Source: Alphaproteobacteria bacterium (GTDB lineage Bacteria; Pseudomonadota; Alphaproteobacteria; Micavibrionales; Micavibrionaceae). From it: DNA of 64,000 bases. Every line of letters begins with the position of its first letter. The first letter of the stretch is position 1. Made by a program: the position numbers and the translations under genes. Shown here one piece after another: positions 4,596 to 57,254 of this stretch. The stretch spans positions 91,889 to 155,888 of the forward strand of contig JAJRSA010000013.1 of NCBI GenBank assembly GCA_024279035.1, written 5' to 3'. The notes beneath the pieces were generated by a model. That model was not told where the DNA came from. It saw only the letters and a program-made list of their open reading frames with translations, and searched no databases.

Positions 4596-5957
4596 ATGCG
4601 TTTAATGATTATTGGTCACCTTGAGGGCTATATTGGGATGGCAGGAAAGATTGCCCTGAAAAAGGGGGCAAAAGTTCTTCATTGTGAAGATATTACTGAA
4701 GCACTTGGGGCTCTGCGAAACGGAAAAGGGGCTGATCTTGCGATGGTTGATGTCAAGTTGTCTATTGCTGATCTTGTCCAGAAACTCGATGCAGAACGTA
4801 TTCATATGCCAATTGTGGCCTGTGGCGTGTCTTCAGATTCACGCGCTGCTGTGAAAGCCATAGAAGCAGGGGCTAAAGAATATGTCCCCCTCCCCCCCGA
4901 TCCTGACTTGATTGCAGCGGTTTTGGCAGCTGTCGCCGAAGAGAATAATACCATGATTGCAGGGGATCTTGCGATGAAACGGATTTTGCAATTGGCGGAT
5001 AAAATTGCGCCGAGTGATGCAACAATTCTCATTACGGGAGAGTCGGGGACGGGGAAAGAAGTCATGTCTCGTTATGTGCACGAGAAATCAAAACGCAATG
5101 GAGGCTCTTTTATTGCTGTGAATTGTGCCGCGATCCCTGAAAACTTACTGGAATCCGAGCTGTTTGGGCATGAAAAAGGGGCGTTTACAGGGGCAATAGG
5201 ACGGCGCATCGGAAAATTTGAAGAGGCCAGTGGCGGGACACTTCTTCTGGATGAGGTGAGTGAAATGGCGCCCTCCTTACAAGCTAAGTTGTTACGCGCC
5301 ATTCAAGAAAAAGAAATCACGCGTGTGGGAAGTAACGATGTCGTGAAAATAGATATACGTATTGTGGCCACCTCCAACCGTAACTTGGAGGAGGCGGTTC
5401 AAAAAGGAGAGTTTAGAGAAGATCTTTATTTTCGTTTAAATGTTGTCAATTTAACGCTTCCTGCCTTGCGAGAACGCCCCTCTGATATTTTACCGTTGGC
5501 ACAGCTCTTTGCGGATAAATTTGCAGAAGATAATGGGGTCGAGACAAAGAAAATTTCTTCAGATGCACAAGCCAAACTCAAATCCTATCCGTGGCGCGGT
5601 AATATCCGTGAGTTGGAAAATACAATGCATCGCGCTATCTTAATTGCGCTGGAAGAGGAGATAGAGCCAGAGGCTATCCATCTCTCTCAAAGCGCGTTTT
5701 CAACACACTCTGTAAGTTCTTCGCCTGTGGAAACCCAACAAAACACACCCGCACAGCCCCTTCAAAACCCTGGTGGAGTTGAAGGTCTTGTCGGGCAGAG
5801 CATCGCCGATGTAGAGCGCCAAATGATCCTTAATACTCTCGATCACTGCCTCGGAAACCGCACTCACGCTGCCAAAGTTCTCGGAATTTCTATTCGTACG
5901 CTCCGTAATAAACTGAATCTTTATAAAGAAGATAATGCTAGTGTTAATGTTGGATGA
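4596..5957 (+). CDS. flbD: Sigma54-dependent flagellar transcriptional activator (FlbD/NtrC family)
   Basis: Receiver-like N-domain, AAA+ sigma54-interaction domain (GESGTGKE Walker A, GAFTGA loop, NIRELEN) and a C-terminal Fis-type HTH (NRTHAAKVLGISIRTLRNKL). Located in the flagellar cluster. Confidence 0.82.
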   Translation: MRLMIIGHLEGYIGMAGKIALKKGAKVLHCEDITEALGALRNGKGADLAMVDVKLSIADLVQKLDAERIHMPIVACGVSSDSRAAVKAIEAGAKEYVPLPPDPDLIAAVLAAVAEENNTMIAGDLAMKRILQLADKIAPSDATILITGESGTGKEVMSRYVHEKSKRNGGSFIAVNCAAIPENLLESELFGHEKGAFTGAIGRRIGKFEEASGGTLLLDEVSEMAPSLQAKLLRAIQEKEITRVGSNDVVKIDIRIVATSNRNLEEAVQKGEFREDLYFRLNVVNLTLPALRERPSDILPLAQLFADKFAEDNGVETKKISSDAQAKLKSYPWRGNIRELENTMHRAILIALEEEIEPEAIHLSQSAFSTHSVSSSPVETQQNTPAQPLQNPGGVEGLVGQSIADVERQMILNTLDHCLGNRTHAAKVLGISIRTLRNKLNLYKEDNASVNVG

Positions 5958-16497: not shown

Positions 16498-19098
16498 TTA
16501 CCAGCCGAATCCTGGTTCTAGTCCAGTATTTGCAACAACTTCTTGATTTATACCTTTATTTTCAAGTTTTTTTCGAAGAAGTTTAAAGGCGTTCATTTGA
16601 ATTTGGCGCACTCCCTCACGTGTTATATCAAATTTTTGAGCAACTTCTTCTAACGTATGTTCCTCATATCCACCCATTCCTTGTCTCATCATAACAATGT
16701 CGAAATGTTTGTCAGATAATTCAGAAAGTGCCTTTTGTAGTGACAGTGATGTATCTTCTCGCATAATAGCTTCGACAGGATCCGTATTGCCTCTTTGATC
16801 GGGAAAAGTATGTGCCAAAGAATAACTTGTGTCTTGTTGGTCATTTCCCAAAGGCACATCTATTGAAGAGGTTTCTTGTTTCTTCCATGTTATAATTTTC
16901 TCCACGTACGGAACAGACTTATTCATGGCTTCAGAAATTTCTTCTAGAGTGACGTCAGGTCCATGTTTTTGCTTTAGATCGTTGCAGACACGATTATACT
17001 TAGTGATCTTATCTCCAATATTAAGAGGTTGGTGTATGGTATTTGCCTTTTCCTTAATTTCTCTGTTTATTCTCGTTTTAATTACATGAGTAGCGTAGGA
17101 GGTAAAACGATATGACTTGGCCTTAGAATCTGTGTTATTCTTCATGTCTTTTCCAGACGCTATATCCTGTTTCTTTTTATCTGGATTAAAATACTTTACG
17201 GCATCCATAAGCCCCTCATTTCCCGATTGAATGAGATCTAGAAGAGAGAGTCCTCGGTATTGGTATTTATAAGCAACCTTGATGACTAGACGTAGATTAG
17301 AATGGAAGAGAATGTTAATTGCCTCTGGATCTTGTATAGATTGTATCTTTCGTCCAAGGTCAATTTCTTGCTCTGCTGTAAGGAGTGGAAACTCTTTTTT
17401 ATGTGCGGTAACCTCTCTCATATATTGCTGGAGAGCATTAGTTTCCTCTCTATAGGCACCCTGTCCTGCGCCTGTGTTGACCTCAGAATATACGGGGTCG
17501 ACGATTTTAATCGTGAGTGTAGATTTCCCTGTAAGGCCAGTCTTCTTAAGAAGTCCTTTGACAGCCTCGTATAACTCTTCGCATCCTAGGGCGTCTGCAA
17601 AGTTATTCAGGTGTAAGAGTGCCTCTTTGCGGTAATTGCTAATTGTAATAGGTGCTTTACCAAGAGTGGTGGCAATTTGTCCCGCTAATATTGGAGGTGT
17701 GTTAATCCCCAAAGAGTGCATCATTGTCGAACGAATGTTTGGCTTTAACGTATTCAGCCACGCTTCCAGATGAGGTTGGTTTTTGGGTTGAAGAAGGATT
17801 TGTTCATTGAGCTGTACCGCTTCATCAAATGTAGCACTTATATTTTGGTCTTCAGATTGGATTGGTTCAGCAATCTCGATGGCGAGTATAGATCTTCCTG
17901 TAAGGCTTTTTTTCTCTACAAGCGCTTCAACGGCCTCATATAAGCCCTGACATTTTTCAGTGTCTGCGAGAGTCTTTAATTGTGAGAGTGCATATTTACG
18001 GTATCCCCCAATCGTGACAGGCTTTTCATCAAGCTCGGAGGCAATTTGTTTTATTAAGAGGGGGGGTGTGTTGATACCCAAAGAGTACATCATAGCTGAA
18101 CTGACAATAGGATGTAGGGCATTCAGCCACCCTTCCAGATGAAGTTGGTTTTCAGGGCGCAGAAGAATTTGTTCGTTGAGCTGTGTCGCTTTATCAAATG
18201 CAGGATTCATTTTAAAGGGGAGAGCCTCACCTGTATGCCTTTCGGCGGATAGATAAGATTCAGCCTCTTGTGCTTGTTTGGCTATGCCGACCTCATTGAG
18301 TAGCTCTAACGTTTCTTCTGTAATGAATGCGAGGACAGGAGGTGTATCTGGTTTCCCAGTGGAGAGCGCATACCCTCCAAAGTCCTCGGGTGGAAACCAT
18401 AATCCTGTAGGGCTAAGTTTTAAGGCCTTGAGTGTAAGGGGGAATAATTTTATCCCCGTTGTGTCCAGTAGATCGGCAATTAGATCATACGCCACAAAAT
18501 AGCGTTCGGCGTTCTTATCGAAGTGGATTGTTTTCCATGCTTTTTGACTATGGCTGATGTCTTGAACAGTGGGTTGTTTTAAAGTTTTCGAGAGGCGACT
18601 ATTTGTAAATCGTCTGTCGGCGATGGGGAGAGGGAAGAGGGCATGATCTGTGTGTTGTCCTAGATGTACTTCATACTCACTATCGCTCATCTCTAAGAGC
18701 TCTTTGATATGATGATCAAAAAAGACCAGGTTTTTATCGCCATGCGCGCCTATGGTGTAGACAGCGTTTGAAGAGGGCATATCCCAGTGATCATGGAAGC
18801 GTACACGAAAATTTGTTTCTGTTGTTGGAATTTCAATAATGCCTCGTTGTTTTAATCTTTCTGCAATAAGAGGATAGGGAGCCATAAATCTGTGCCGTCC
18901 ACGATCGTCAGCTCTCTCGAGATCTTGCAATAGGACGACTTGATGGGAGCCTTTTAAGTATTGAAGGTCTAAATTATCACTCTTTCTCTTTGGGAGAATA
19001 TACTTATGTTTTGATATAGAAAGTTTGGGGCTATGTATATTAGGAGAGGCTTCTTCTACATTCTTAATGGATAATGCTGCAACGTTCAAAACAATCAC
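16498..19098 (-). CDS. Sigma70-family sigma factor with a ~550-aa N-terminal extension
   Basis: The C-terminal ~310 aa carry region 2 (NLRLVIKVAYKY...LLDLIQSGNEGLMDAVKYF...FTSYATHVIKTRINREI), region 3, and region 4 (LEEVAQKFDITREGVRQIQMNAFKLLRK). It is a single 866-codon ORF with a GTG start (TTG three codons downstream is also possible). AT-rich. Confidence 0.8.
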   Translation of the reverse strand: MIVLNVAALSIKNVEEASPNIHSPKLSISKHKYILPKRKSDNLDLQYLKGSHQVVLLQDLERADDRGRHRFMAPYPLIAERLKQRGIIEIPTTETNFRVRFHDHWDMPSSNAVYTIGAHGDKNLVFFDHHIKELLEMSDSEYEVHLGQHTDHALFPLPIADRRFTNSRLSKTLKQPTVQDISHSQKAWKTIHFDKNAERYFVAYDLIADLLDTTGIKLFPLTLKALKLSPTGLWFPPEDFGGYALSTGKPDTPPVLAFITEETLELLNEVGIAKQAQEAESYLSAERHTGEALPFKMNPAFDKATQLNEQILLRPENQLHLEGWLNALHPIVSSAMMYSLGINTPPLLIKQIASELDEKPVTIGGYRKYALSQLKTLADTEKCQGLYEAVEALVEKKSLTGRSILAIEIAEPIQSEDQNISATFDEAVQLNEQILLQPKNQPHLEAWLNTLKPNIRSTMMHSLGINTPPILAGQIATTLGKAPITISNYRKEALLHLNNFADALGCEELYEAVKGLLKKTGLTGKSTLTIKIVDPVYSEVNTGAGQGAYREETNALQQYMREVTAHKKEFPLLTAEQEIDLGRKIQSIQDPEAINILFHSNLRLVIKVAYKYQYRGLSLLDLIQSGNEGLMDAVKYFNPDKKKQDIASGKDMKNNTDSKAKSYRFTSYATHVIKTRINREIKEKANTIHQPLNIGDKITKYNRVCNDLKQKHGPDVTLEEISEAMNKSVPYVEKIITWKKQETSSIDVPLGNDQQDTSYSLAHTFPDQRGNTDPVEAIMREDTSLSLQKALSELSDKHFDIVMMRQGMGGYEEHTLEEVAQKFDITREGVRQIQMNAFKLLRKKLENKGINQEVVANTGLEPGFGW
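17461..18198 (-). repeat. Intragenic tandem duplication, 2 x 369 bp (2 x 123 aa), within the sigma-factor extension
   Basis: TTCCAGATGA...TTGTTC(A/G)TTGAGCTGT recurs with an exact 369-nt offset (17764 vs 18133). The protein units start FDKATQLNEQILLRPENQ and FDEAVQLNEQILLQPKNQ. Confidence 0.85.
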
Positions 19099-23685: not shown

Positions 23686-25701
23686 TTATTTATACAACGA
23701 CAATTTCCCCGTGAGTTCTTTGAGATTCGATGTTTTTCCAAAGAGAGACAGCACAACATACTCAACCTCCTCGTCTTTTTTAGTTTTGAGGGAGGCGACT
23801 TGCTCTTTCGATGAGCCTAACTGCATATCTTTTGTGAAATCCGTAAAGGGCAGGTTTTTGTCCAACGCCTGCTGACGGATTTTACGGATTTGATTGCCAT
23901 TCTTTGCTTTTAAAATAATGACAGGATAGTGAGAGACAGAGGGGTGAATATTGCCGTCTATATCCTCATAATTAATCAAACAAAGATCTTGATCTTTGGC
24001 TTCTCGTCCAGAGAGCCCCACCATAGAATGTCCAATCGCATTCATAACTCGCCCTGTGTCGGTCTCTTTCCCGTTCACCACAACGACAAAACGATACTCA
24101 CTGTCATCAACAGTGAGATAACGGTCATTGTTCTCTTCTTTGGCCTCTGGCACGGAGGATAAAGGTTTGGAGGGGGAGGGCTCTGCCTTTGCAAAATTAG
24201 GACGTAACGTTGGAAAGCAGATGACGTCTCGGATGTTGGGTGAGTCTGTGAGGAGCATCACAAGACGGTCAATGCCCATACCCCATCCTGCTGTAGGAGG
24301 GAGACCGACTTCAAGAGCTGTAATATAATCTTCATCCAGCATTTGCGCTTCCTCATCTCCAGCCTCTCGTTGAGAGACTTGTTCTTCAAAGCGCACTCTT
24401 TGGATGGCTGGATCATTAAGCTCTGTAAAAGCATTAGCAATTTCCCAACCATTCACAAAGCTCTCAAAACGTTCTACAAGTCGAGGTATGTCTCGATGAC
24501 CTTTTGCCAAAGGTGATATTTCAAAGGGATGGTTAATGACATGGGTTGGTTGAATGAGGGTGTGTTCTACTTTTTCATCAAAGCAGGCTTCCACCACTTG
24601 CCCCCAGTTGGCGGTACGTTCAACATGCACACCTGCTTTTAAAGCGGTTTTTTGTGCCTCTTCGGCCGTCTCAATTACCATAAAATCAATGCCCGTTTTA
24701 TCTTGAACAAGATCACACATGGACGCTCGCTTCCACGGACTATTGAAATCAACGCGTTGTTCGTCAATAGTAATGACGCGAGATCCATGGATATGTTCGA
24801 CAGTCTGCCCGACAAGATCCTCTATTAAGTCCATCATATCATTATAGTCTTTAAAGGCATGGTATCCTTCAATCATTGTAAATTCTGGATTGTGTTTAAT
24901 GGAAACACCTTCATTGCGGAAGTTCCTATTAATTTCAAACACAGAATCTGCAATACCGCCAACAATCAAGCGTTTTAGTTTTAGTTCAGGGGCAATGCGG
25001 AGATAAAAGTCATGGTCAAGCGCATTATAGTGAGTCACAAAAGGCTTTGCTGATGCACCTCCTAATATTTCATGGAGCATTGGGGTTTCCACCTCTAAAG
25101 CGCCAGCATCTTCCATGTAACGACGAATGAACGAGACAATTTTGGAGCGTGTGCGTAAAGTTTCTCGACTCTCCTCATTTACAATCAAATCCACATAGCG
25201 CTGGCGATAGCGTTGTTCGACATCCGTAAGTCCATGATGTTTATCTGGCAAAGGCTGGAGGGATTTTGTAAGCATGTGAAGCTCTGTTGCTCGCACAGAG
25301 AGCTCCCCTCGAGGAGTCCGACGCATTGTGCCTTTAACGCCTATAATATCACCCAAATCCAGAAATTTGAGTTTCGCAAGCTCATCCTCAGACATGGATT
25401 GCTTGTGACAAAAGACTTGAATACGTCCAGAGGTATCCATCACATCAATAAACATCCCGCTATTGCGCATCGCCATCACGCGCCCTGCTACGGAGACTGT
25501 GTCCTTCGTTTCCGTATCATCCGCAAGGTCTTTATATGTGTCTTGTAACGCATCGGCCATGTCTGTGCGGTCATAGACATGCGGATAGGGATCTAAACCA
25601 GAGTCAATTAACGCCTTGAGTTTAGCTTCTTTCGCAGCTCTTGGATCGCCTGCGGTTGAGTTTGAATTCTGTGTCTGGTTTTTTGGATGCGTTTGTGTCA
25701 T
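23686..25701 (-). CDS. lysS: Lysine--tRNA ligase (class II) with a ~170-aa C-terminal extension
   Basis: OB-fold anticodon-binding domain and class II motifs (FYLRIAPELKLKRLIVGG, FRNEG, GWGMGIDRLVMLL). The core ends near aa 501 (VICFPTLRP). A Pro/Ser linker and a 135-aa extra domain follow. Confidence 0.92.
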   Translation of the reverse strand: MTQTHPKNQTQNSNSTAGDPRAAKEAKLKALIDSGLDPYPHVYDRTDMADALQDTYKDLADDTETKDTVSVAGRVMAMRNSGMFIDVMDTSGRIQVFCHKQSMSEDELAKLKFLDLGDIIGVKGTMRRTPRGELSVRATELHMLTKSLQPLPDKHHGLTDVEQRYRQRYVDLIVNEESRETLRTRSKIVSFIRRYMEDAGALEVETPMLHEILGGASAKPFVTHYNALDHDFYLRIAPELKLKRLIVGGIADSVFEINRNFRNEGVSIKHNPEFTMIEGYHAFKDYNDMMDLIEDLVGQTVEHIHGSRVITIDEQRVDFNSPWKRASMCDLVQDKTGIDFMVIETAEEAQKTALKAGVHVERTANWGQVVEACFDEKVEHTLIQPTHVINHPFEISPLAKGHRDIPRLVERFESFVNGWEIANAFTELNDPAIQRVRFEEQVSQREAGDEEAQMLDEDYITALEVGLPPTAGWGMGIDRLVMLLTDSPNIRDVICFPTLRPNFAKAEPSPSKPLSSVPEAKEENNDRYLTVDDSEYRFVVVVNGKETDTGRVMNAIGHSMVGLSGREAKDQDLCLINYEDIDGNIHPSVSHYPVIILKAKNGNQIRKIRQQALDKNLPFTDFTKDMQLGSSKEQVASLKTKKDEEVEYVVLSLFGKTSNLKELTGKLSLYK

Positions 25702-31360: not shown

Positions 31361-34219
31361 TTAAGCTCTAATCTTAACATCTTCCTCTTCTCTAGACAGC
31401 CATTTCTCGAGGACATCAACCATGACTTGTTTTTTAATGGGTTTTGTTATGTAGTCATCCATGCCTGCGGCATAGCATTTTTCATCATCCCCTTTCATGG
31501 CAAAAGCGGTAAAGGCGACGATGGGCGTTTTTGGGAATTGTTTATTTTTTTCGAGTGTGCGAATGACTCTCGTGGCTTCAAATCCATCCATTTCTGGCAT
31601 GTTACAATCCATAAATACCAAATCAAATCGGCTTTGCTTGATTAAGTTAACGGCTTCTAACCCATTTCCAGCAGGAGTCACACGACACCCCATTTTTTCT
31701 AGCATGATTGTGGCAACCATTTGATTTGTTGGATTGTCTTCGGCCAGTAATATTTGAGCCCCCTTAAAATTAAGATCGACATTCTTAGTCTTGTCTTCTG
31801 TTTTTGTTTTGGATTCACGGAGTGTGTGACGTGTAATTAAGCTGGTGGGAGAGACTCCTTTGCGCATGGATTGTATGGCAGATAAGGCAAGAATAATATC
31901 ATGTCCACTACTTGGTTTGGTTAAAAACCCACTAAAACCAGCGTCTTCCATACGTTTATTATCTCCACGAGAGGGGGCAGATGAAATCATGAGAAGGGAC
32001 ATGTCTTTGATGGCCTTATCGCTTTTAATGGCTTTTGCGAGCTCTAAACCGTCAAGACCTGGCATCATGTAATCCAAGACTGCTATTTCATAAGGAGCGC
32101 CCTCTTTTTGGGCTTGTTTAATGAGGGCGAGGCCCTCATCTCCGGAGGCCGCGATCGTGATATCCATATTATGAGAGCGCATATGCTCGGCGGCAATTTC
32201 TTGTGCGATTTTATTATCATCAACAATAATGGCTTTAATGCCAGAGAGGTCAGATGTGAAATCAAGTTTTTCTCTGACATTAACATCTTTGTCAGGTTCA
32301 AGCTGGAAGGTGAACCAGAATGTAGATCCAACATCAGGTGTGCTCTCGACGCCAATATTTCCAGCCATAATGTGACTTAACTCTTGGCAAATCGTGAGCC
32401 CGAGGCCTGTCCCTCCAAATTTACGTGTGGTTGTTCCGTCTGCTTGACTGAATTTTTGGAAAATCTGTTCATGCTTTTCTTTTGGAATACCAATGCCTGT
32501 GTCTTCAATAGAGGCACGGAATTCTATGTCTCCAGTGCCCATGTCTTGATATTCGAGGGCGATGAGAATGTGTCCGGCCTCTGTGAATTTTAAGGCATTG
32601 CTGGACAGATTAAGAAAGATTTGTCTGACACGCCCAGGGTCTCCCATGACATAGCGGGGCATATCTGGTGCAAAGCGCAGAAGCATCTCTAGCCCTTTTT
32701 CCTGTGCTTTAATTGCTATCAGATCAGCAACTTCTTCGACCAAGAGGTGAAGATCAAAGGGTATAATTTCCAGTTCGAGTTTTCCTGCTTCAATCTTAGA
32801 AAAGTCCAAAATATCATTGATGAGCTGGAGAAGATTTTCAGCTGAATTCATAGCTGTACGAGCATAGTCTTGTTGTGTGGGGTCTAGCCCTGTTTCCATC
32901 AACAAATTCGTCATGCCGATGATTCCGTTCATGGGCGTGCGGATTTCATGGGACATATTGGCCAAGAACTCAGATTTCATTTTTGTGGCGTCTTCTGCTC
33001 TTTCTTTGGCTTTTTTGAGCTCTAACGCATTCTGTTTAAAGACATGAATGGCTTTAAACATAGACCCCATTTCATCTTGAAATTTATACTCTGGGAGATT
33101 GAAATCTACATCGCCTTGCGATAAACCTCTCATATGCTGTGTAATGATTTGAATAGGGGAGAGAATACGTCTATATAAAACGATGAATAATCCAATCAGA
33201 ATAAGTAGAATAAGCAGGCTGCCCAAGAGAGTAACAATCAATGTATGACGAGCGTCTCTTTCATAGATGTTTAGCCCTTCCAAAATGGGTTGTTCGAGAT
33301 GTGTTTCTATCTTTTGAAAACGATCCAAGATGCGTTGTAATTGAAAATCCCAATTTTCACGGACTTCTGCCGTGATCTCCTGTGCAATAATTTTGTCATA
33401 GACTTCTTTTTGAATCTCATCAAAAAGAAGGAAAGCTTGTGTGAACTCTTTGAGGATGCTGGAGAGCTCCGTTTGGATCCGTTCGCTTTGAAAAACATTG
33501 GCGTTTAGATTTTCTTTTTCGATGATCATAATGAGTGTACGTTGCTTTTGTACCTGTTTACTCAAGAGCGCCAAACGGTTGGAGGCTTCACGATCAAAAA
33601 CACCTGTTTTGACAATTTTTTGAAGCAATACGCCTTCCTCTATCATCAAAATATAGAGCTGTTCAACGGCAGGACGGACAATCAATTCTTGGTACAACAA
33701 AAAGTCAGGTCCATTTTTAGGAGAGAGGAGTAAAAACCGTATTCTCGCCAAAACATTGGAGGTGTGTTCGATTGTATCGACCCACTCATCATGGCTAATC
33801 TCAGCGTTATCTTCTTGTGCATGTAAAGTATTTATAGCTCTTTCAATGTCCGAGAGTTCATACAAAATAGGATCTATATTCTCCTTTAAGTGTGGCAAAA
33901 GAGCGTTGAGCTTGTCTCTGTTTTCAGAGACAAGCTCTCTATATTCTGCCTCATATTCCTCTTTGTAGTCTTGGTTGTCTTCTATAAAATTATCAATAAT
34001 CTGTAACCGTAAAAAGAGCTCAGAGCTTAGCCCATAGTCAATCTCCCGTGTTTGATCAATAAGTGTATTCATCTGTCTGAATTGCCCTGAATGGTGGGAT
34101 GTCTCTATGGCCCTCATAATCCTTTCTCCATTAAAAAATATCAGGAGGAAGACAGGAAAGAGAAAGCTGAGGAGGAGAAGAGAGCGAACAGTGAGGCGCT
34201 TTGTGGGGGTCTCATTCAT
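31361..34219 (-). CDS. Hybrid sensor histidine kinase with two C-terminal receiver domains
   Basis: 952 aa. Two TM segments flank a ~300-aa sensor region, then HAMP, H-box [16 protein letters not shown] boxes ([26 protein letters not shown]), and receivers [11 protein letters not shown]...[11 protein letters not shown] and [11 protein letters not shown]...[12 protein letters not shown]. Confidence 0.92.
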
Positions 34220-34338: not shown

Positions 34339-34414
34339 TGGTAGCGGAGGGCAGAATTGAACTGCCGACCTTCGGATTATGATTCCGCTGCTCTAACCGC
34401 TGAGCTACACCGCC
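34339..34414 (-). tRNA. tRNA with CAT anticodon (elongator Met or lysidine-modified Ile2)
   Basis: 76 nt, folds as a cloverleaf by hand: GGCGGTG-TA-GCTC-AGCGGTTA-GAGC-A-GCGGA-ATCATAA-TCCGA-AGGTC-GGCAG-TTCAATT-CTGCC-CTCCGCT-A-CCA. CCA is encoded. The acceptor stem has G1-U72 and a U6-U67 mismatch. Confidence 0.78.
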
Positions 34415-35193: not shown

Positions 35194-36162
35194 CTAGTTT
35201 AGTGCAAGTCTGAGAGCATCATTAAGTTTAGTTTTTTGGTCGAGTGGTAGAGCTGTCCATTCAGCTTCTTGTTGAAGAGAATCAATTTCTGAAGCTTCTA
35301 AAGCATTTACGTCACCACCGAGTCCAGCAGCCTCAGCCATTAGGTTCTTTAGGGCAGGAGAAATTTTTATTGCGGAATTATTTAATATATCTGTTAGTTC
35401 CTCATGTGTCACTGTTCCTGAGGTTCCTTGTGAATCCGTATTGCCTAGAGTATTGTTTGCAAAACTGCCTTTTCCTCCAGTATTATTTAAAATTGCCCTG
35501 TTTTTTGCATTAGTTATGTTTTGCCCAGTACCAAGAAATCCTTTGTTTAATTTATCTATTATATTTGTGATTTTGCTTTCTGCGTTTATGGCAATTTCTG
35601 GGCTAAAGCCTTTGACTCGACCAGAAACTTGATTTTGAACAGGAGCAATTGTCTCTGAGACCCATTCATTCATATCTTGTGCTCTAGTTACGATTGTTTT
35701 TGCAAGATCAGTCATCCCTAACATGGTTGCTACTGCACCAAAAAATCCAGCAATTCCGCTTGTCCAATCACTCAGTTTTTCGGCAACAGCAGATCGTACT
35801 TTAAAAATTGTTCCGAGTTGTTGTTGTTCTAAGCCACGAAAATTTGAAAGATGTCCCTCTTTTTCTGTCTTGGAAAGTTCTACCTGTGTTGTTAAAGTCT
35901 CATTGACAATAGCCAAAATCTTCGTGGCGCCATCTTCATCAAATTTCTGTATGTAACCTTGACGGCCTTTTAGGGTCTCAATAAAATTGGTATAAAGCTC
36001 TCCCTGACCAACGGCTTGTCCATATCTAAGAGGTTCATCCAAAAAAAACTGACGTTGTATAGGATCATTAGGATCAACATCTTTAATATTAGCTTTAAAT
36101 GTTGCTAATGCTTCTGCCTTTCCTATTGCGCCTGTGTTTTCATCTACCATCTCTATCTCCAA
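35194..36162 (-). CDS. Hypothetical protein (322 aa), orphan island gene 3
   Basis: Long ORF in an AT-rich region, same strand as its neighbours. One Gly/Ala-rich hydrophobic segment (WTSGIAGFFGAVATMLGM) and an Asn/Gly/Thr-rich low-complexity stretch. No family recognised. Confidence 0.55.
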   Translation of the reverse strand: MEIEMVDENTGAIGKAEALATFKANIKDVDPNDPIQRQFFLDEPLRYGQAVGQGELYTNFIETLKGRQGYIQKFDEDGATKILAIVNETLTTQVELSKTEKEGHLSNFRGLEQQQLGTIFKVRSAVAEKLSDWTSGIAGFFGAVATMLGMTDLAKTIVTRAQDMNEWVSETIAPVQNQVSGRVKGFSPEIAINAESKITNIIDKLNKGFLGTGQNITNAKNRAILNNTGGKGSFANNTLGNTDSQGTSGTVTHEELTDILNNSAIKISPALKNLMAEAAGLGGDVNALEASEIDSLQQEAEWTALPLDQKTKLNDALRLALN

Positions 36163-36258
36163 GTTTTTTGTTCATTTTTAACTATTACCAGTATTATAAG
36201 TATTTATGTTTTCTTATACAAAGTAAACTTACAAAGCATTGATTTTAAATGATTTTAT

Positions 36259-37365
36259 CTATCCTGCTTCTAAGACTGCTTGTCTAATAACATGCCTTTG
36301 TTTAAATTCTAACCCTTTTACAGCTTCAGTAAATTCTGCGTTATTCGTGATGCTCTGACGTGCTTCTTCCTTATTAAGGCCAGCATTTCCATCTTGTTGG
36401 GCAACATTATTCATGACTGATCTAATGTTTTGAAGGACATTTTGAGGGATAGATATTCCTGCATTTTTTGTAGCAAAACTAACCCTTTTCATGACGTTGT
36501 CTACAGGTTCTCCTTCTATGTCTTTAAGTTTTTGTTGAACGTATGTGTCTGCCCCAGCCTGAGTCTTTTTGATAAAGCTTGTTGCATTATCTGTAACAAT
36601 CTTTTTTCCTTCAGAAGCGAGGGATTTTTCTTTTTGATCAAGAGCTTCCTGTTTCCTTTCGTCAAATCTTTTTAATACTTCCAGAGCGGCAGCATTCCCC
36701 GTGCTACCCAGCATCTCGATATGTTTTCTATAGTCAGCGGTGTCTTGTAATAAGCTTGATGCTATCTGATCAGCCTTATAAAACATGACGGTTGCTCTTG
36801 GATCCTTAAAAGGAGCTTCATTTTTGCCTAGATGTTCAGTAACGGTCTCTGAGACAGCTTCACGTTTGAATGGTGAAATATCATTATAATTTTCTAAAAA
36901 TTCTTCAATGTGTTCATTGAGTAATCTTGTTCCTCCGATTGGGTTGTTATAGCGCCATTTAAGAAGAGTTACACCTAATTGATCATTTCCTCCAGCAAGC
37001 TCCATACCAGCTATATTAGCAATAGCTCTTACTGGATTAGGAATACTTCCAATAACTCCAGCAGGGTAAGAGGCGTAACTTAATGCAGTGTCTAAAATAC
37101 TATTGTCTTCTATCATGTCGTGATCTTTGAGTTTGTCTTGAACACCCATGCTTCCAAGGCTAAGAATGCTCACTCCTGCGTATTTTTTCCAATGATTAGA
37201 TAAATGTCCAGAAATAGCTGAAAACCTTCCAGTTGTTGCCTCAGGGTCAACGAGATTACCTATGTTATTAGGGACATCATTAGGATTGAGTGGGCTATTT
37301 CCTTCACCCGCCAACTTTTTAACTTTCTTTTGAGCCCACTCTTTCATAAATTTTGGAACTGCCAT
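36259..37365 (-). CDS. Hypothetical protein (368 aa), orphan island gene 2
   Basis: Long ORF, AT-rich. Helical and charged C-half; Gly-rich hydrophobic patches (AGVSILSLGSMGV, YPAGVIGSIPNPVRAIANIAGMELAGG). No family recognised. Confidence 0.55.
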   Translation of the reverse strand: MAVPKFMKEWAQKKVKKLAGEGNSPLNPNDVPNNIGNLVDPEATTGRFSAISGHLSNHWKKYAGVSILSLGSMGVQDKLKDHDMIEDNSILDTALSYASYPAGVIGSIPNPVRAIANIAGMELAGGNDQLGVTLLKWRYNNPIGGTRLLNEHIEEFLENYNDISPFKREAVSETVTEHLGKNEAPFKDPRATVMFYKADQIASSLLQDTADYRKHIEMLGSTGNAAALEVLKRFDERKQEALDQKEKSLASEGKKIVTDNATSFIKKTQAGADTYVQQKLKDIEGEPVDNVMKRVSFATKNAGISIPQNVLQNIRSVMNNVAQQDGNAGLNKEEARQSITNNAEFTEAVKGLEFKQRHVIRQAVLEAG

Positions 37366-37452
37366 GATACTCTTCCTTTCTTTTTCTCTTTATATTAACA
37401 TAAGTATACATAAAATATCAAGGATATATGGGTATAATACTGTTTTTGTTTT

Positions 37453-37998
37453 CTAAAACTCCATTTGATAGAGGTTTTGTTTGGAGGGTTTCTGTGCCTG
37501 TTCTTCCATAATCTGATCAGGAAAGAGTATAATCCCTCCGATTTCACTTGCAAACGCTGTTCCTTCTGCACCAACAATCACACCTGCCGATTTTGCTAAT
37601 GCTTTGACAGACATCAATTTAGCCACGGCACCCGCAGGGGCGATGTAAGATGTTATTGTTCCTGCAATATGTAAGCCTTCGTCAAAAGTGTCAATATGTT
37701 TAGAGGTGCATATATGTTGATCAAGTCTTTCTGATATAGTGCCATTTATATGGTCAAACCCTCCCCATGGCTCATTTTTCATTTGACCTGCCCCCCATAG
37801 CATTGGCACATTATTAATCGCATCAACAAGATAGCCAATGCTTGATGCTATTTCTACGCCACCGTCAATAATGCCCTTTGAAAAAACATTGGCACGATGT
37901 CGAAAGCCCGTCCCATCATTACATTCCTGTGCTGTGGTCGTGATCTGGTCAGGATAGGCACTTTGACCTGTAAAATTATCTGATATTGTGTCTACCAT
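37453..37998 (-). CDS. Hypothetical protein (181 aa), orphan island gene 1
   Basis: ORF with a C-terminal Gly/Ala-zipper-like hydrophobic region (GLHIAGTITSYIAPAGAVAKLMSVKALAKSAGVIVGAEGTAFASEIGGIILF). No family recognised. Confidence 0.5.
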   Translation of the reverse strand: MVDTISDNFTGQSAYPDQITTTAQECNDGTGFRHRANVFSKGIIDGGVEIASSIGYLVDAINNVPMLWGAGQMKNEPWGGFDHINGTISERLDQHICTSKHIDTFDEGLHIAGTITSYIAPAGAVAKLMSVKALAKSAGVIVGAEGTAFASEIGGIILFPDQIMEEQAQKPSKQNLYQMEF

Positions 37999-39930: not shown

Positions 39931-40551
39931 TTACTCGCTTATAATAAAGGTGATCTGGGTGTCACTTGGCTCAACTGTCACGTTCAAGCCAAGATCTCGT
40001 GCGCTTAGTCCGAGTAGATACGATGTTACGAGCCGAGGGTCAATATCTTCAATGGATATTTCTCCTGCTAGGGAGTCAATAATGGTCTCGCGGAGCATGA
40101 AATCGTCGCCTTTGGCTGTGACATGTGTTCTTGTTCCTTCAATATGTGCGTGTAACGTCCCTCCTTTAGGGAGCGTTTCTATAGCAAGAAGAAATGTTCC
40201 CATCAATATTTTAGAGAATCCGTTATGCGGTATTGTTGTGATCTCCCCATGAGGATCCCACTCTTGGGTGATTTTATTCTCAAGTGTAAGAAGCTCTTCG
40301 ATGGCTGTATACATATCTTCTGGTTTTACAGACGGATCCCGTCCCCCTGCGCCATAGGCAAGGCGAAAAGCTTTAAGTTTGCTCGTCGCGTGTATGGCGG
40401 AGTGACGCATAAGATCGAGGGCCTCCTCAAGAGAATCTGTTCCCATCTCATCCAAAAACTCAATCCCGTTATGAATCGCGCCGACAGGATTAATCAAATC
40501 ATGACAAATGCGGGAGGCAAGCATTTCAAGGAGGAGGGTGCGTTCTAACAT
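39931..40551 (-). CDS. chpT: Histidine phosphotransferase ChpT-like
   Basis: 206 aa. H-box-like LASRICHDLINPVGAIHNGIEFL and a degenerate kinase-like C-domain, as in alphaproteobacterial ChpT. Confidence 0.7.
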   Translation of the reverse strand: MLERTLLLEMLASRICHDLINPVGAIHNGIEFLDEMGTDSLEEALDLMRHSAIHATSKLKAFRLAYGAGGRDPSVKPEDMYTAIEELLTLENKITQEWDPHGEITTIPHNGFSKILMGTFLLAIETLPKGGTLHAHIEGTRTHVTAKGDDFMLRETIIDSLAGEISIEDIDPRLVTSYLLGLSARDLGLNVTVEPSDTQITFIISE

Positions 40552-51700: not shown

Positions 51701-52864
51701 GTGAAGATATCGTTGATTGTTGATAGGATGGATGTTTTTGGAGGTGTGGAGACACATATTCGAGATATTGTTCATAATTTTCTTTATTATGGGCATAATG
51801 TAGATATTATTACAGGGGTAGAAGGTGTTTTATCTGATCCATTAAAAGATAGAGGTGTTAATGTTGTAGAATGTCCAGAAATCATACGAGATATAAAAAG
51901 ACCCGATCTTTATGTACGTAGTGTATTTGAGCTTGCTTCTCTCTTAAAAAAGAAGCCTCCAGATGTAGTGCATTCGCATAACATATCATCTGAATTTCCC
52001 GCTAGAATTGCTGCAAGACTTTTGTCAATTCCTTCTGTTCACACGGTACATGGGTGGAGTTTTGGGCATGATTCCGTTTCTCTTAAAACAAAAGCTATTA
52101 ATGGTGCATGCCATAGCATGGCAAGTATATTTAATAATGGACAAACTATTTTTGTAAGTGATTTTAATAGAAATCATGGCCTTACAAGAGGGTATGTGTA
52201 CCCTGAGACATCAAGGACAATCCATAATGGTATTCCTAATGTTCTTCCGACTCAACAAGGACAACATAACTCTAAAAAAAATGAGGCGGTAAGACTTGTA
52301 ATGGTTTCTAGATTGTCTCCTGAAAAAGATCATACAAGCGTCCTGCATGCCTTATCAGCTCTTAAAGATATGAATTGGGTAGTTGACTTTGCTGGTGGGG
52401 GAGAGAGTAAGCAGTATAAGGAATTAGCAACAAAGCTTGGTATTGGAGATCGTTGCCATTTTTTGGGAGAGGTTGAAGATATTCCAAATTTTATTTCTCA
52501 GAAAGATATTTTTATTTTATCCAGTCATCAAGAAGGGCTTCCTATTTCCATTATTGAAGCCATGCGCGCAAGACTTCCTGTTATTGCAAGTGATGTGGGT
52601 GGAGTTTCTGAACTTGTTGTTGATGGTGATAACGGTTATGTTTTTCCACGTATGGATGTAGAGTGTTTATCTGGTCATCTGAGAGATTTGATTTCTAATC
52701 AAGAAAAAAGAAGAGAGATGGGAGAGGTTGGTAGAGAGATCTATGAACAAAAATTTGCAATGAATAAAATGATGTCGCAGATCTACAAAGTTTATAACGA
52801 AACTATTGAAAATCACACACAGCATATTCATCGTCCTGAGTTTTTACAGCCGGCTGTTCGATGA
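51701..52864 (+). CDS. Glycosyltransferase family 4 (GT-B fold)
   Basis: 387 aa, GTG start. EX7E region EGLPISIIEAMRARLPVIASDVGGVSELV. AT-rich. Confidence 0.8.
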   Translation: MKISLIVDRMDVFGGVETHIRDIVHNFLYYGHNVDIITGVEGVLSDPLKDRGVNVVECPEIIRDIKRPDLYVRSVFELASLLKKKPPDVVHSHNISSEFPARIAARLLSIPSVHTVHGWSFGHDSVSLKTKAINGACHSMASIFNNGQTIFVSDFNRNHGLTRGYVYPETSRTIHNGIPNVLPTQQGQHNSKKNEAVRLVMVSRLSPEKDHTSVLHALSALKDMNWVVDFAGGGESKQYKELATKLGIGDRCHFLGEVEDIPNFISQKDIFILSSHQEGLPISIIEAMRARLPVIASDVGGVSELVVDGDNGYVFPRMDVECLSGHLRDLISNQEKRREMGEVGREIYEQKFAMNKMMSQIYKVYNETIENHTQHIHRPEFLQPAVR

Positions 52865-54049: not shown

Positions 54050-54778
54050 ATGTTTGTCCGTCGTCTTTTGATTGTTTTATGTCTGTGTTTCTTCTCCGTA
54101 AGTGCGCAGGCGTCGTCATGGTGTAAAATGTCAAAGAAGGCCAATATCAGAATTTCACCAGAAATGTCTAAGATCAGATATGATTATTCCAAAAGCTTTC
54201 TTGAGCTGTCTAATGTGCAGTTAGCTAGCCAAAATCCCTATGGCAGTAAGGCCATTACACATACGTTTGGGATCGCCAATGGACAGTTTAATATTGAGCA
54301 TTTGGTCAAGTTTCAAATTTTAACCAATCCCAATACCAACGAGAGTTGCCTGTGGTATGACACAGTGACGGTAAAGATGAAGATGAAGCCTGTCATTATG
54401 ATTGCCAATGAATATAGAAAAGGGGGATGTCATTTTAGGGAAGTGATGACCCACGAGATGCAACATATTGCTGTTGATAAGCAAGTGACCAATCAATATG
54501 CTCAAAAATTGGGGCAAGACTTATTAAGAGAAGTGAACCGAAAAGCCATTTATGGCCCGTTCCCCACTGCACAGAAAAACAAGATTCAACAACAGATACA
54601 GAAACGCCTCAATCAAATTGTAAAAGCCAATAACACAGCAATGATGAGTGCGCGCTCGCAGCGCCAGTCTGTGATTGACTCCAAAAGTAATTACGATGCT
54701 GTGGGTCAAAAAATAGAGCGCTGTGACCAGAGAAGCCCTATTACCGCCAAGCGTGTCCAGCGCAAGATTGAGCGTTAA
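54050..54778 (+). CDS. Secreted hypothetical protein with an HExxH motif (possible Zn-metallopeptidase-like)
   Basis: Signal peptide MFVRRLLIVLCLCFFSVSAQA and a single HEMQH motif (VMTHEMQHIAV) preceded by conserved-looking Cys residues. The family is not firmly recognised (DUF922-like at best). Confidence 0.4.
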   Translation: MFVRRLLIVLCLCFFSVSAQASSWCKMSKKANIRISPEMSKIRYDYSKSFLELSNVQLASQNPYGSKAITHTFGIANGQFNIEHLVKFQILTNPNTNESCLWYDTVTVKMKMKPVIMIANEYRKGGCHFREVMTHEMQHIAVDKQVTNQYAQKLGQDLLREVNRKAIYGPFPTAQKNKIQQQIQKRLNQIVKANNTAMMSARSQRQSVIDSKSNYDAVGQKIERCDQRSPITAKRVQRKIER

Positions 54779-54780
54779 GT

Positions 54781-56889
54781 TTACCCTATAGCATAGTGCC
54801 CCGCATTTGCGCGTGTTTGGTCTAAAAATTTAGGAGGGACAGAGAGGCTATCTAACTCTAATTTAATAGCCATTTCAGAGGCTCTATAGTCTGTTCCCAT
54901 GTGGCGTCCACAGATGGAAATTTCAATATAAGGGTTAGCGTTTCGTGCCTGTGTCACGATTTTTTTTATTATCTCTTCTAAAATGGATGTGATGTGTTGG
55001 AAGGGGCTTTGTCCTGTGACTTTATGTGTAATCATCCAGTCTGTGATGGTCTTTCCGTCGTGGCGTTCTATACCGCCCATGATCTCTGACATAAGATCAT
55101 TTGTGCCAATGCTTATAAAGTCAGCCTGTTGGGCTATTTCCCTGATATTGTCAACCGCATCCAGTGTTTCGATCATTGCGCCGATCTTATAGGCACGATT
55201 ATCTGCAATTTTTTGTGCTGTGGCTTTAACCTCTAAAAATTCATCGACCATTCTGACTAAAGGCACTAAAATTTTAACAGGGGCAGTATATTTAGCTTTG
55301 GCGGCAGCATTGAAGAGAGAGGCAATTTGCATCTCATAGAGACCAGATGTTTGAGAGGCAAACTGCACACCTCTTCTCTGGTCTGTATCAAGATCTTGTC
55401 TAAAAGTATGTGTATTGTCCAAAATTTCATCAGGGACAGCATCTAGGAGACGGACGGTAACAGGCGTGTTATTTGCGTCTGTGAATATTTTTTGGAGGAT
55501 CTTCTCCTGAATATCATTAAGAATGTTGAGGGCAGATTTTCTGTGTGTTTCATCGATCTCTGTCATAAGAGATTGAAGGGCCTCTAAGCCTTTTGTGTTA
55601 GAGGACAATAAATGTTCTGTACGGAGAAGCCCAATACCTTCTGCGCCATGCTCAAAAGCCTTTTGTACTTGTTCAGAGGTATCGGCATTGGCTAAAATGG
55701 ATAAAGGAGTATGCGTTTTTCGTGCGGTATCTGCCCAGTCCATGAAGTCAGAGTACCAATATTCATCTTGAAGGGAATAGTTTGATATTTCACATTGTTC
55801 TGAAATGAAAACACCTCCTATGGAGCTGATTATATTACCACTATCTATGGTCACATAATCTCCTATTGATAATTTTTTTAGCTGCTGATCATTATCACCC
55901 GTCTCAAGGTTATGGAAATAATATGTGTGGAGGAGCTGATTGTCTTTCAGAGAGATATGACCATTGCTCTCAGGGTCTAATCCCATAATTGCTGTAATGT
56001 CTGCATTTTCTGCTTGAAGAGCGAGATGGTTATTTGCTTTTCCTATAAGGATAAATCCATCAATGTTCCTGAAAAAAGTAGACATTTCTGGTGTATAATC
56101 ATGTGTGCAGAAAATAATAGGCTCGTTTTGACTTTTTCTTTTTAAGTCATCAATATCGGATTTACTCAATGCTAATCGTCCAGAGACAGGGCTTCCTGTG
56201 CCTTCTTTAAATATCAATTCTTCAATATATGGGACACTACTGATGTAATTTTTCTCGATAAGCTTCCTATTTGAAGGATCAAAGCAAGAAAGCCCTTGTT
56301 CTTGTGTTGCATTCCCGTTGGCAACTATTTTATGGATTGTTTGAGGGGGGAATTTGGTCTCTGGGCTTTGTGTTAATGTGTAAGCATCTTTACTTACAAT
56401 AAAATGTGTTCCCCAGTGTCTATTACAATATCTTCGTAGCGTTGTATGGAGAAATAGGTAATTTTCATATTCTTTCAATATTTTCTCTCGTTCCTCTTTT
56501 TTTTGCCAAATGGCAATACACTCAAACTCTTGAGTTTGAGTGTATTGAGGGGTTCCCCATTTTAAAGCAGGCTGGCAATCTGTATCTCTAGAGTGTATAA
56601 AAAATGTATCTGGAAGGTATTGTGTTCCTGTGTGTTCACAATGAGAGAGGAGATCTGTCAAAACATCCAGCCCAATCTCACCACTTCCACAAGTATTATC
56701 ATCCGCTGTAATAATGTTTGGTTTGTGACCACTTTGAAGCCAGTTGTCTAATATTTTTAGAGCATCTTGCGTACAGGTGGCATAGCCGACTTCAACTTCA
56801 ACGCCACAATTCTTAAACATGCTCTCCACATCGTGGTAGCGTGCCATATCATCATCGACAATCAAAATACGTCTTTTTTTATCAGCCAT
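54781..56889 (-). CDS. Receiver domain fused to a PPDK-like phosphohistidine plus PEP/pyruvate-binding module (no nucleotide-binding domain)
   Basis: 702 aa. N-terminal CheY-like domain (RILIVDDD, NIITADD). Swivel-like segment ending GKANNHLALQAEN. PEP-utilizer TIM-barrel motifs GAEGIGLLRTEHLL, VRLLDAVPDE, IGAMIETLDA...ADFISIGTNDLMSEIMG, SICGRHMG. Confidence 0.75.
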   Translation of the reverse strand: MADKKRRILIVDDDMARYHDVESMFKNCGVEVEVGYATCTQDALKILDNWLQSGHKPNIITADDNTCGSGEIGLDVLTDLLSHCEHTGTQYLPDTFFIHSRDTDCQPALKWGTPQYTQTQEFECIAIWQKKEEREKILKEYENYLFLHTTLRRYCNRHWGTHFIVSKDAYTLTQSPETKFPPQTIHKIVANGNATQEQGLSCFDPSNRKLIEKNYISSVPYIEELIFKEGTGSPVSGRLALSKSDIDDLKRKSQNEPIIFCTHDYTPEMSTFFRNIDGFILIGKANNHLALQAENADITAIMGLDPESNGHISLKDNQLLHTYYFHNLETGDNDQQLKKLSIGDYVTIDSGNIISSIGGVFISEQCEISNYSLQDEYWYSDFMDWADTARKTHTPLSILANADTSEQVQKAFEHGAEGIGLLRTEHLLSSNTKGLEALQSLMTEIDETHRKSALNILNDIQEKILQKIFTDANNTPVTVRLLDAVPDEILDNTHTFRQDLDTDQRRGVQFASQTSGLYEMQIASLFNAAAKAKYTAPVKILVPLVRMVDEFLEVKATAQKIADNRAYKIGAMIETLDAVDNIREIAQQADFISIGTNDLMSEIMGGIERHDGKTITDWMITHKVTGQSPFQHITSILEEIIKKIVTQARNANPYIEISICGRHMGTDYRASEMAIKLELDSLSVPPKFLDQTRANAGHYAIG

Positions 56890-56954
56890 TGTAGCATTAC
56901 CTTAATGGATTTTAAGATATAACAGATGTAAATTAATTTATAGTATATGTCAAC

Positions 56955-57029
56955 ATTCGTGATTCTGCCCTCCAGACTCACGAAAACCGCTGCGTGAGGG
57001 ACGTCAGCGGTTTCGAATTTGGTTTTGTT
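56955..57029. promoter_or_regulatory. Structured two-hairpin element in the divergent spacer between the REC::PPDK-like gene and acnA
   Basis: Closing stem ATTCG/CGAAT encloses hairpins CGTGA...TCACG and AAACCGCTG...CAGCGGTTT. The loops carry complementary CCCTC and GAGGG. T-runs follow the second hairpin on both strands. Confidence 0.3.
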
Positions 57030-57254
57030 AAGCTCTATAAATGTCCTTTAAAGGAGAGATCTATAAAATTCTTATAGTCTTAATATCGCATGGAACTGTG
57101 TCTTTTTTTTGCGTTAAATACGCCTTATTTGCGCCTTATTTATATCCATTTGATTTTAAACGATATTTTTAGTCTTTTTCTTTGTATTTTTTCATTTTAA
57201 ATCATGGTATTTTGTCTGTATTGGCAGTAAAAACTCGTAAAAGCAGGATAAAAC

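Follow-up and report, generated by a model that had tools for sequence, protein, structure and literature searches.

A PPDK-derived protein with a receiver-like domain in place of its nucleotide-binding domain: a candidate PEP-driven His-to-Asp relay

What is left for a pyruvate phosphate dikinase (PPDK) to do when a receiver-like domain stands where its nucleotide-binding domain should be? The question is raised by a gene for a 702-residue protein on the minus strand of a 64-kb stretch of alphaproteobacterial DNA (64,000 nucleotides of the Micavibrionaceae contig JAJRSA010000013.1, referred to below as the window). An earlier note, made from the sequence, had described the product as a complete CheY-like receiver joined to the C-terminal two thirds of PPDK, and had suggested that phosphoenolpyruvate (PEP) might drive a phosphorelay from a His to an Asp of the same chain. 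We find that the protein belongs to a real, conserved, rare and uncharacterized family in which known modules occur in a new arrangement. A receiver-type domain does replace the nucleotide-binding domain of PPDK, and the phospho-His carrier and the PEP/pyruvate site are intact, as judged by alignment, a PF02896 match and the predicted fold. The reading that we favor, to which we assign a probability of roughly 40%, is that of a His–Asp phosphorelay in a single polypeptide, powered by PEP rather than ATP, in which the phosphoryl group would pass from PEP to His288 and then to Asp63.

The PPDK-derived part

The sole strong Pfam match is to PF02896 (PEP-utilizers_C; E 3.1e-45, residues 392–696), which the earlier note had expected to find. 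PF01326, the ATP-grasp domain PPDK_N, gives no match even at E ≤ 1, and its predicted absence is thereby borne out. The mobile domain of PEP utilizers, PF00391, stays below threshold in the target (E 0.0064; 16.5 versus 23.1 bits; residues 256–349) and exceeds the cut-off in another family member, P0175. The proposed swivel domain is therefore upheld by alignment and fold, as described below, but not by Pfam in the target itself. Among the NCBIfam models, PPDK ranks highest (TIGR01828, 158.3 bits), followed by Enzyme I of the phosphotransferase system (PTS; TIGR01417, 80 bits, with a match restricted to the barrel at residues 386–688) and PEP synthase (71 bits). All of these scores are far under the equivalog cut-offs, which are 843.45 bits for TIGR01828 and 341.7 bits for TIGR01417. 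A sequence search of solved structures also places PPDKs closest (5.6e-30). The open reading frame (ORF) and its PPDK-derived features, in window coordinates, are as follows.

54781..56889, minus strand: whole ORF, 702 residues plus stop; intact, with its start at the start position of its homologs
56227..56340, minus strand: PPDK-type linker 1, residues 184–221 (approximately PPDK 349–386), by hhalign and tblastn
55735..56217, minus strand: swivel (central, phospho-His) domain, residues 225–385, by PPDK alignment and by AlphaFold2 (AF2) with Foldseek
56026..56028, minus strand: His288, equivalent of the catalytic His of PPDK and Enzyme I, in a column invariant across the family and PPDKs
54790..55716, minus strand: PEP/pyruvate-binding TIM barrel, residues 392–700, with R423, E425, R480, E574, N597, D598 and C660, by PF02896 and AF2
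54910..54912, minus strand: Cys660, the catalytic Cys of PPDK and Enzyme I (proton donor to pyruvate enolate), aligned with the Cys of GICGEHGG

The C-terminal motifs picked out in the earlier note all lie where it had read them: GKANNH288LAL, GAEGIGLLRTEHLL, VRLLDAVPDE, IGAMIETLDA, ADFISIGTNDLMSEIMG and SIC660GRHMG. A MAFFT alignment of the protein and 23 PPDKs puts His288 in the column that holds the invariant catalytic His of GG.TSHAAVVARG, which confirms its proposed identity as the counterpart of the PPDK catalytic His, although the motif around it is degraded to GKANNHLAL. In a first full-length MAFFT alignment that included whole PPDKs, the ATP-grasp domain fell over the receiver, and the PPDKs were trimmed before structure prediction.

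The full-length AF2 model, computed from the family and the trimmed PPDKs, has a mean pLDDT of 83.3 and a pTM of 0.77, with most of the barrel above 90. A Foldseek search of the PDB with this model finds PPDKs first (E ∼1e-36, ∼565 columns), followed by Enzyme I and PEP synthase. The model superposes on 1vbg, 2r82 and 5jvl/5jvj with an rmsd of ∼4.4 Å and on 1kbl/1dik with an rmsd of ∼12 Å. Because the better fits are to PPDK entries whose central and PEP domains we take to lie close together, His288 appears to be docked at the PEP site in the model.

Where the PPDK-derived part begins can be read from two comparisons. The N-terminal profile of the family, compared with a PPDK profile by hhalign, aligns residues 184–221 with PPDK residues 349–386 (E 5.9e-5, probability 65%), which form the helical linker directly downstream of the ATP-grasp domain, and tblastn matches to PPDK genes start at residues 163–188 of the target. 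These results indicate that the PPDK-derived part starts at about residue 184 and that PPDK residues 1 to ∼345 have been replaced. Judged by its conserved residues, the machinery for the PEP half-reaction is complete and under selection.

The receiver-like domain and its protein family

The N-terminal motifs noted earlier are likewise in place (RILIVDDD at residues 7–14, NIITAD with D63, and S100). Comparison of five family members with five canonical receivers by hhalign gave a probability of 93% (E 2.8e-7) over β1–β3; with 37 members the values are 96.1% and E 2.9e-9 over residues 7–83. The alignments place D12/D13 on CheY D12/D13 and Asp63 on CheY Asp57, so that the acceptor Asp posited in the earlier note holds its position in a profile–profile comparison. 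An AF2 model of residues 1–232, built from a 37-sequence alignment (pLDDT 87.9, pTM 0.82), has the order β1, short α1, β2, α2, β3, α3, β4, loop, β5, short helix and then a module of five helices (131–147, 150–159, 167–174, 182–190 and 196–201). The top PDB matches of this model in Foldseek are all receiver domains (6swl at 2e-4; 6xvu and 3ilh over ∼100 columns with an rmsd of 3.2–3.3 Å), and canonical multi-receiver proteins turn up among the weakest matches to the N-terminal profile. Since these profile and fold matches are to receivers, yet helix α4 and the conserved Lys are missing, the N-terminal domain, as compared and modeled here, is receiver-derived but atypical. Its features and those of the adjoining helical module are listed below; counts refer to a 42-member alignment whose members are 23–41% identical to the query.

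56512..56889, minus strand: atypical receiver-like domain, residues 1–126, by AF2, Foldseek and hhalign
Secondary structure within it, by residue: β1 6–11, β2 32–37, α2 40–52, β3 59–63, α3 73–87, β4 95–100, β5 115–118, helix 120–126
56851..56856, minus strand: acidic pair D12–D13, the metal-binding pair of receivers, by CheY alignment (D36/N4 and D37/N4 of 42)
56701..56703, minus strand: Asp63, candidate phospho-acceptor, aligned with CheY D57 (42/42)
56590..56595, minus strand: His99–Ser100 at the end of β4; S100 corresponds to the Thr/Ser of receivers (S39/T3), and H99 is family-specific (H33/42)
56527..56529, minus strand: Glu121, just past β5 in the region of the canonical Lys (E39/D2/N1 of 42)
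56239..56499, minus strand: helical module between the receiver-like and swivel domains, residues 131–217, by AF2
56401..56445, minus strand: family-specific motif TLRxYxNxxWGTxF, residues 149–163, from conserved columns in the family alignment

The columns kept in this last motif are L151, R152 (28/42), Y154, N156 (36/42) and G160 (35/42), and G129 is conserved across the family beside H99 and E121. Eight residues are invariant in 42/42 sequences: D63 in the receiver-like domain, H288 in the swivel domain, and R423, E425, R480, M572, E574 and G595. Nearly so are C660 (41/42), D598 (40/42) and N597 (38/42), and position 100 is Ser or Thr in every member. The TSH motif at the catalytic His is not retained; the target has NNH, and position 286 is Thr in 12 and Ser in 12 of the 42.

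The family is small. Among 5.8 billion clusters, a word-indexed search brought up no more than four relatives of full length (25–37% identity), and the same type of search with the N-terminal alignment gave two proteins; for this reason, the census was taken by running the N-terminal profile exhaustively against 1.84 billion representatives with HMMER. This search yielded 65 proteins at E ≤ 1e-3. According to local HMMs, 40 of them join the N-terminal module to the barrel, 38 with a recognizable swivel domain as well; the remainder are mostly fragments, the weakest matches being canonical multi-receiver proteins. A contig scan with a short RILIVDD-type pattern, which was saturated by that pattern, returned only a Lachnospiraceae PPDK-like locus. 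All family members are metagenomic and carry no functional name, being annotated as 'hypothetical protein' or with an automatic 'PPDK' label. The named carriers are metagenome-assembled genomes (MAGs) of Alphaproteobacteria or Proteobacteria, and the one record labeled 'Pacebacteria' falls in a 90% identity cluster with records from Alphaproteobacteria MAGs.

Several members vary the arrangement. In P0125 (1444 residues), five tandem receiver-like copies, all with the DD...D residues kept, precede the swivel domain and the barrel, and P0165 and P0173 have additional canonical PF00072 domains above threshold. Receivers have thus been fused to the swivel–barrel module more than once. P0178 (2031 residues) carries a C-terminal extension of ∼1,350 residues without a Pfam domain, and P0133, P0136 and P0138 (∼900 residues) have an N-terminal extension of ∼145 residues.

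Possible routes of the phosphoryl group

The conservation of the catalytic residues makes it very likely, by homology, that PEP phosphorylates His288. In the relay that we favor, the protein would descend from a PPDK whose ATP-grasp domain gave way to a receiver-like domain, and would have become an ATP-independent, PEP-driven phosphotransfer protein. PEP bound at the C-terminal TIM barrel would phosphorylate His288 of the swivel domain with release of pyruvate, the reaction known from PPDK and PTS Enzyme I. The swivel domain, moving on its PPDK-type linkers, would then bring the phosphoryl group to the pocket formed by D12, D13, D63 and S100, where Asp63 would be phosphorylated, either within one chain or, in a dimer, across to the partner chain. 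From Asp63 the group might pass to a histidine phosphotransferase (HPt) or other partner, might alter the interactions of the protein, or might be lost by hydrolysis, the net reaction then being conversion of PEP to pyruvate and Pi. Overall, the protein would act as a hybrid histidine kinase does, but with PEP as its phosphodonor, and would report the PEP/pyruvate ratio.

Because no nucleotide-binding domain is present, the phospho-His would need another acceptor. The transfer from His288 to Asp63 is chemically plausible: the phospho-His of PPDK and Enzyme I is the N-epsilon2 isomer, which receivers accept from histidine kinase and HPt donors, and the group-transfer potential of PEP is above that of acyl phosphates. 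We favor Asp63 as the acceptor because the receiver-like pocket stands where the former acceptor site was, on the same linker; because Asp63 and His288 are both invariant; because receivers have repeatedly been added to the swivel–barrel module; and because no gene for an external donor or acceptor lies nearby, a gene for a histidine kinase, HPt, HPr or PPDK_N protein being adjacent at none of 12 family loci. The receiver of CckA argues in the same direction, as it has no defined α4 and still works as a phosphoryl shuttle (PMC9981736).

Several observations weigh against a relay of this kind. The match to PF00072 (Response_reg) is below threshold (13.9 versus 30.2 bits, E 0.063) and spans residues 8–63 only, with a match of any kind in just one of five close family members. 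In the AF2 model, β4 (95–100) loops to β5 (115–118) with no helix α4, and the description of the domain as a complete receiver cannot be kept. No conserved Lys or Arg occurs in columns 101–127 of the 42-member alignment, where receivers keep a Lys at the end of β5. K110, which had been proposed as this Lys, occupies a column in the variable β4–β5 loop (10 gaps, K9, D6, G5 and others). On the evidence of alignment and model, then, the missing Lys, the missing α4 and the sub-threshold Pfam score leave the competence of Asp63 as an acceptor unproven. The analysis found neither an output domain nor a downstream partner. In addition, a receiver at the N-terminus with an enzyme behind it is how response regulators are usually arranged, and in them the receiver serves as input rather than as acceptor. 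Finally, the fusions of a receiver to the ATP-grasp domain of PPDK (REC-PPDK_N) have receivers without the Asp, which by analogy suggests that receivers attached to PPDK modules can act unphosphorylated.

If the protein were instead a response regulator, Asp63 would be phosphorylated by an unlinked histidine kinase, an HPt or a small-molecule donor, and the receiver would gate an Enzyme I-like output in which PEP phosphorylates His288, and His288 in turn an unlinked partner (HPr/NPr-like or other). Apart from the canonical order of N-terminal receiver and C-terminal enzyme, this interpretation can appeal to PtsP (GAF–Enzyme I), in which a sensor domain lies N-terminal to Enzyme I, and to a genome that runs His–Asp relays, with a hybrid histidine kinase at 31361–34219 and a ChpT-like HPt at 39931–40551. 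The invariance of Asp63 and His288, which gating requires too, is compatible with relay and gating alike, and both, as already put forward in the earlier note, remain the leading readings. We nevertheless regard gating, the main rival, as possible but on balance unlikely: none of the 12 contexts has a neighboring gene for a kinase, an HPt or an HPr-like protein, the signal-transmitting α4–β5–α5 face and the Lys are missing, the catalytic module derives from PPDK and not from Enzyme I (TIGR01828, 158 bits, versus TIGR01417, 80 bits), and an HPr-binding subdomain was not identified. The missing Lys and α4 and the low Pfam score could also mean that the receiver fold is degenerate and never phosphorylated, with a pocket that binds Mg2+ or a ligand or merely scaffolds. 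The protein would then be a PEP-utilizing enzyme that passes the phosphoryl group of His288 to a small molecule or to water, and the helical module with the TLRxYxNxxWGTxF motif may form the acceptor site. Conserved residues that are not those of receivers (H99, E121, R152, Y154 and N156) suggest a remodeled site, and aspartate-less receivers (ALRs) offer a precedent, as PPDK-fused receivers that lost phospho-acceptance. However, the acceptor Asp is kept in 42/42 members, with the acidic pair and the Ser/Thr nearly invariant at 23–41% identity, which runs counter to the loss of the Asp seen in pseudo-receivers, and extra canonical receivers are fused to the same module. A receiver fold that is never phosphorylated therefore seems unlikely to us.

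It is far less probable that the His carrier and PEP domain pair with a separate ATP-grasp (PPDK_N) protein to rebuild PPDK or PEP synthase activity, with the receiver-like domain as a docking or regulatory element. Stand-alone and receiver-fused PPDK_N proteins are known in other phyla, and the retained linker and swivel domain would in principle permit docking to a nucleotide domain in trans, but a PPDK_N gene lies beside none of the 12 family loci. Moreover, the REC-PPDK_N proteins are known from Bacteroidetes, Acidobacteria and Spirochaetes and not from the alphaproteobacterial MAGs that carry the target family, and the TSH motif at the catalytic His has become NNH. That the gene is a decaying relic, a PPDK that has been truncated or rearranged and is being lost, without a function of its own, could draw on the rarity of the family (singleton clusters) and on a GC content somewhat below that of the flanking genes. 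It is effectively refuted by the intact 702-residue ORF, the confident AF2 models and ∼40 clusters that share the architecture and the invariant catalytic residues at 23–41% identity.

If the relay from PEP to His288 and Asp63 exists, it would add a third way of turning metabolic state into protein phosphorylation to the two provided by ATP-dependent histidine kinases and the PTS. It would bridge the PEP/pyruvate node and two-component-type signaling directly, with two-component chemistry fueled straight from a glycolytic intermediate, and the protein would be a natural one-protein sensor of PEP and pyruvate. Its biological impact may be narrow, considering the rarity and provenance of the family (∼40 clusters from uncultured organisms, mostly in alphaproteobacterial metagenome bins).

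Genomic setting and known systems

The target gene is monocistronic: it diverges from acnA and converges with a 242-residue ORF, amid the housekeeping genes folD, purB and ppiase. The aconitase of the window shares 75–77% identity with proteins from Alphaproteobacteria and Rhodospirillales MAGs, which identifies the source as an alphaproteobacterium not in culture. Its GC content of 39.6% (GC at third codon positions, GC3, 34%) is below that of the window (44.5%), so that 'AT-rich' in the earlier note was right in direction; the difference is modest and inside the range of the other genes of the window. No second copy (paralog) of the protein is encoded in the 64 kb. The 242-residue ORF (54050–54778, plus strand) has its stop codon 2 nt from that of the target. 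It adjoins the target homolog in one other locus (L001) too and not in the other family loci, has at its N-terminus a signal-peptide-like segment, contains HEMQH, a motif of the HExxH type, and gives no Pfam match; judged by these features, its product may be secreted and metalloprotease-like. Upstream of the target lies the following region.

56890..57254, no strand assigned: divergent intergenic region common to the target and acnA, 365 nt, with a terminator-like hairpin inside

The earlier note had seen a long structured leader here. The case for it is weak, since the fold z-score of −2.55 is owed mostly to one hairpin and an Rfam search of the 365 nt gave no match, and we reject a structured leader or riboswitch 5′ of the target in favor of a divergent promoter region that contains one hairpin. 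The hairpin itself (ACCGCTG...CAGCGGT followed by TTTTCG, ∼56984–57013, minus strand) is GC-rich and resembles an intrinsic terminator, although no upstream gene ends there.

The search for conserved neighbors that had been suggested for this domain order came to nothing: no neighbor recurs across the 12 family loci, and no HPr/NPr gene was seen within the window or at these loci. At four loci (those of P0137, P0178, P0004 and P0132, the first three being L009, L011 and L002), the family member adjoins plasmid or island genes, including RepC, ParA/VirC1, Toprim/DUF3991, Fic, HipA, SNase, an integrase and a ResIII/SLFN-type helicase. RepC, ParA, Toprim, Fic and HipA are the neighbors at L009, integrase, helicase and SNase genes lie near P0132 and P0004, and a helicase gene encoding ∼620–655 residues is upstream at both of the latter loci. 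There are hints, then, that part of the family is mobile. As a general property, a role as defense system or as plasmid or phage cargo is unsupported: the target has no PADLOC match, no full-length family copy was found on 72,556 plasmids and none on viral contigs, and the copy in the window sits amid housekeeping genes.

Elsewhere in the window, the hybrid histidine kinase (31361–34219, minus strand; HAMP–HisKA–HATPase_c and two receivers) lies 20 kb from the target and adjoins a tRNA gene at 34342–34414. The 206-residue ORF at 39931–40551 (minus strand) contains a ChpT-type HPt domain (PF10090, 2.3e-15), and on this domain match its product is a candidate acceptor from the phosphorylated target protein. 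Together these two genes indicate that the organism uses His–Asp relays. Another degenerate receiver is encoded in the same genome, at the N-terminus of an FlbD-like sigma-54 activator (4596–5957, plus strand; 27.7 versus 30.2 bits), which belongs to a flagellar cluster (FliF, FliG, MotA and FlhA); Tad genes are also present in the window. A class II aminoacyl-tRNA synthetase (23686–25701, minus strand; tRNA-synt_2 and OB anticodon domain) has the unusual C-terminal fusion of a DUF2000 domain (2.4e-28). In the RpoD-like sigma-70 factor encoded at 16498–19098 (minus strand, 866 residues), region 1.2 starts at residue ∼556, which implies a very long N-terminal extension. Just past the tRNA gene, three successive ORFs without a Pfam match (35194–37998, minus strand; 322, 368 and 181 residues) have the lowest GC of the window (0.38–0.40), and this stretch may be a genomic island. 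A glycosyltransferase gene (GT4/GT1; 51701–52864, plus strand) has a GC3 of 0.23 compared with 0.42–0.47 for its neighbors and was probably acquired horizontally.

Among known systems, PPDK (EC 2.7.9.1; TIGR01828; PDB 1dik, 1kbl, 1vbg, 2r82 and 5jvl) is the best match of the target in sequence and fold. The two share both linkers (1 and 2), a swivel domain that bears the catalytic His, and a PEP/pyruvate TIM barrel with the Arg/Arg/Glu/Asn-Asp/Cys set. Unlike PPDK, the target is without the ∼340-residue ATP-grasp domain for nucleotide and Pi and has a receiver-like domain and a helical module instead, its GG.TSH motif is reduced to the invariant His, and its score of 158 bits is far short of the 843 set as the family cut-off. 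By itself, the protein cannot act as a dikinase.

With PTS Enzyme I, its paralog EI-Ntr (PtsP) and the multiphosphoryl transfer proteins, the target shares a two-domain catalytic core and a nucleotide-free logic in which the phosphoryl group goes from PEP to a swivel His and on to a protein acceptor. In PtsP, Enzyme I is preceded by a sensor domain, and multiphosphoryl transfer proteins have phospho-acceptor domains (HPr/EIIA) fused to it. The core of the target is nevertheless PPDK-like (80 bits against the 341.7 required for Enzyme I), an HPr-binding helical subdomain is not recognized, and the helical module that it does have aligns partly with the PPDK linker. No HPr or EIIA genes lie near the target, whose candidate fused acceptor is an Asp-type receiver rather than a His-type PTS domain.

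The likeness to hybrid histidine kinases and multistep phosphorelays such as that of CckA, with its Rec_inter domain, lies in an autophosphorylating His module combined with a receiver as would-be acceptor, in cis or across a dimer. It is functional only, as neither HisKA/DHp nor HATPase_c has a Pfam match in the target. The proposed donor is PEP and not ATP, and the receiver is N-terminal rather than C-terminal and without the conserved Lys. Like CckA Rec, it has no defined α4 (PMC9981736).

Full-text literature searches gave no account of a receiver fused to a swivel domain and PEP barrel. With the family unnamed and the published REC-PPDK being the other half of the enzyme, the statement in the earlier note that no protein of this architecture has been characterized stands. 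The parts are well known, namely the PEP-driven His carrier of PPDK and Enzyme I and the acidic pocket of CheY; their combination, with the receiver at the position of the nucleotide site of PPDK, is undescribed and unnamed. The nearest entry in response-regulator censuses is REC-PPDK_N (Response_reg~PPDK_N, PF00072 plus PF01326), which Galperin et al. 2018 (PMC5847659) list as 'Bacteroides-like REC-PPDK' and which the census of ALRs by Maule et al. 2015 (PMC4395418) also includes. In that census its receivers are aspartate-less in 18 of 18 cases, and its hosts are Bacteroidetes, Acidobacteria and Spirochaetes (PMC4395418 supplement). We considered and rejected the identity of the target architecture with this 'REC-PPDK'. 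Both join a receiver-type domain to a piece of PPDK, but the census fusion has the ATP-grasp domain without the PEP barrel, whereas the target family has the opposite half, keeps the Asp invariant and is hosted by alphaproteobacterial MAGs.

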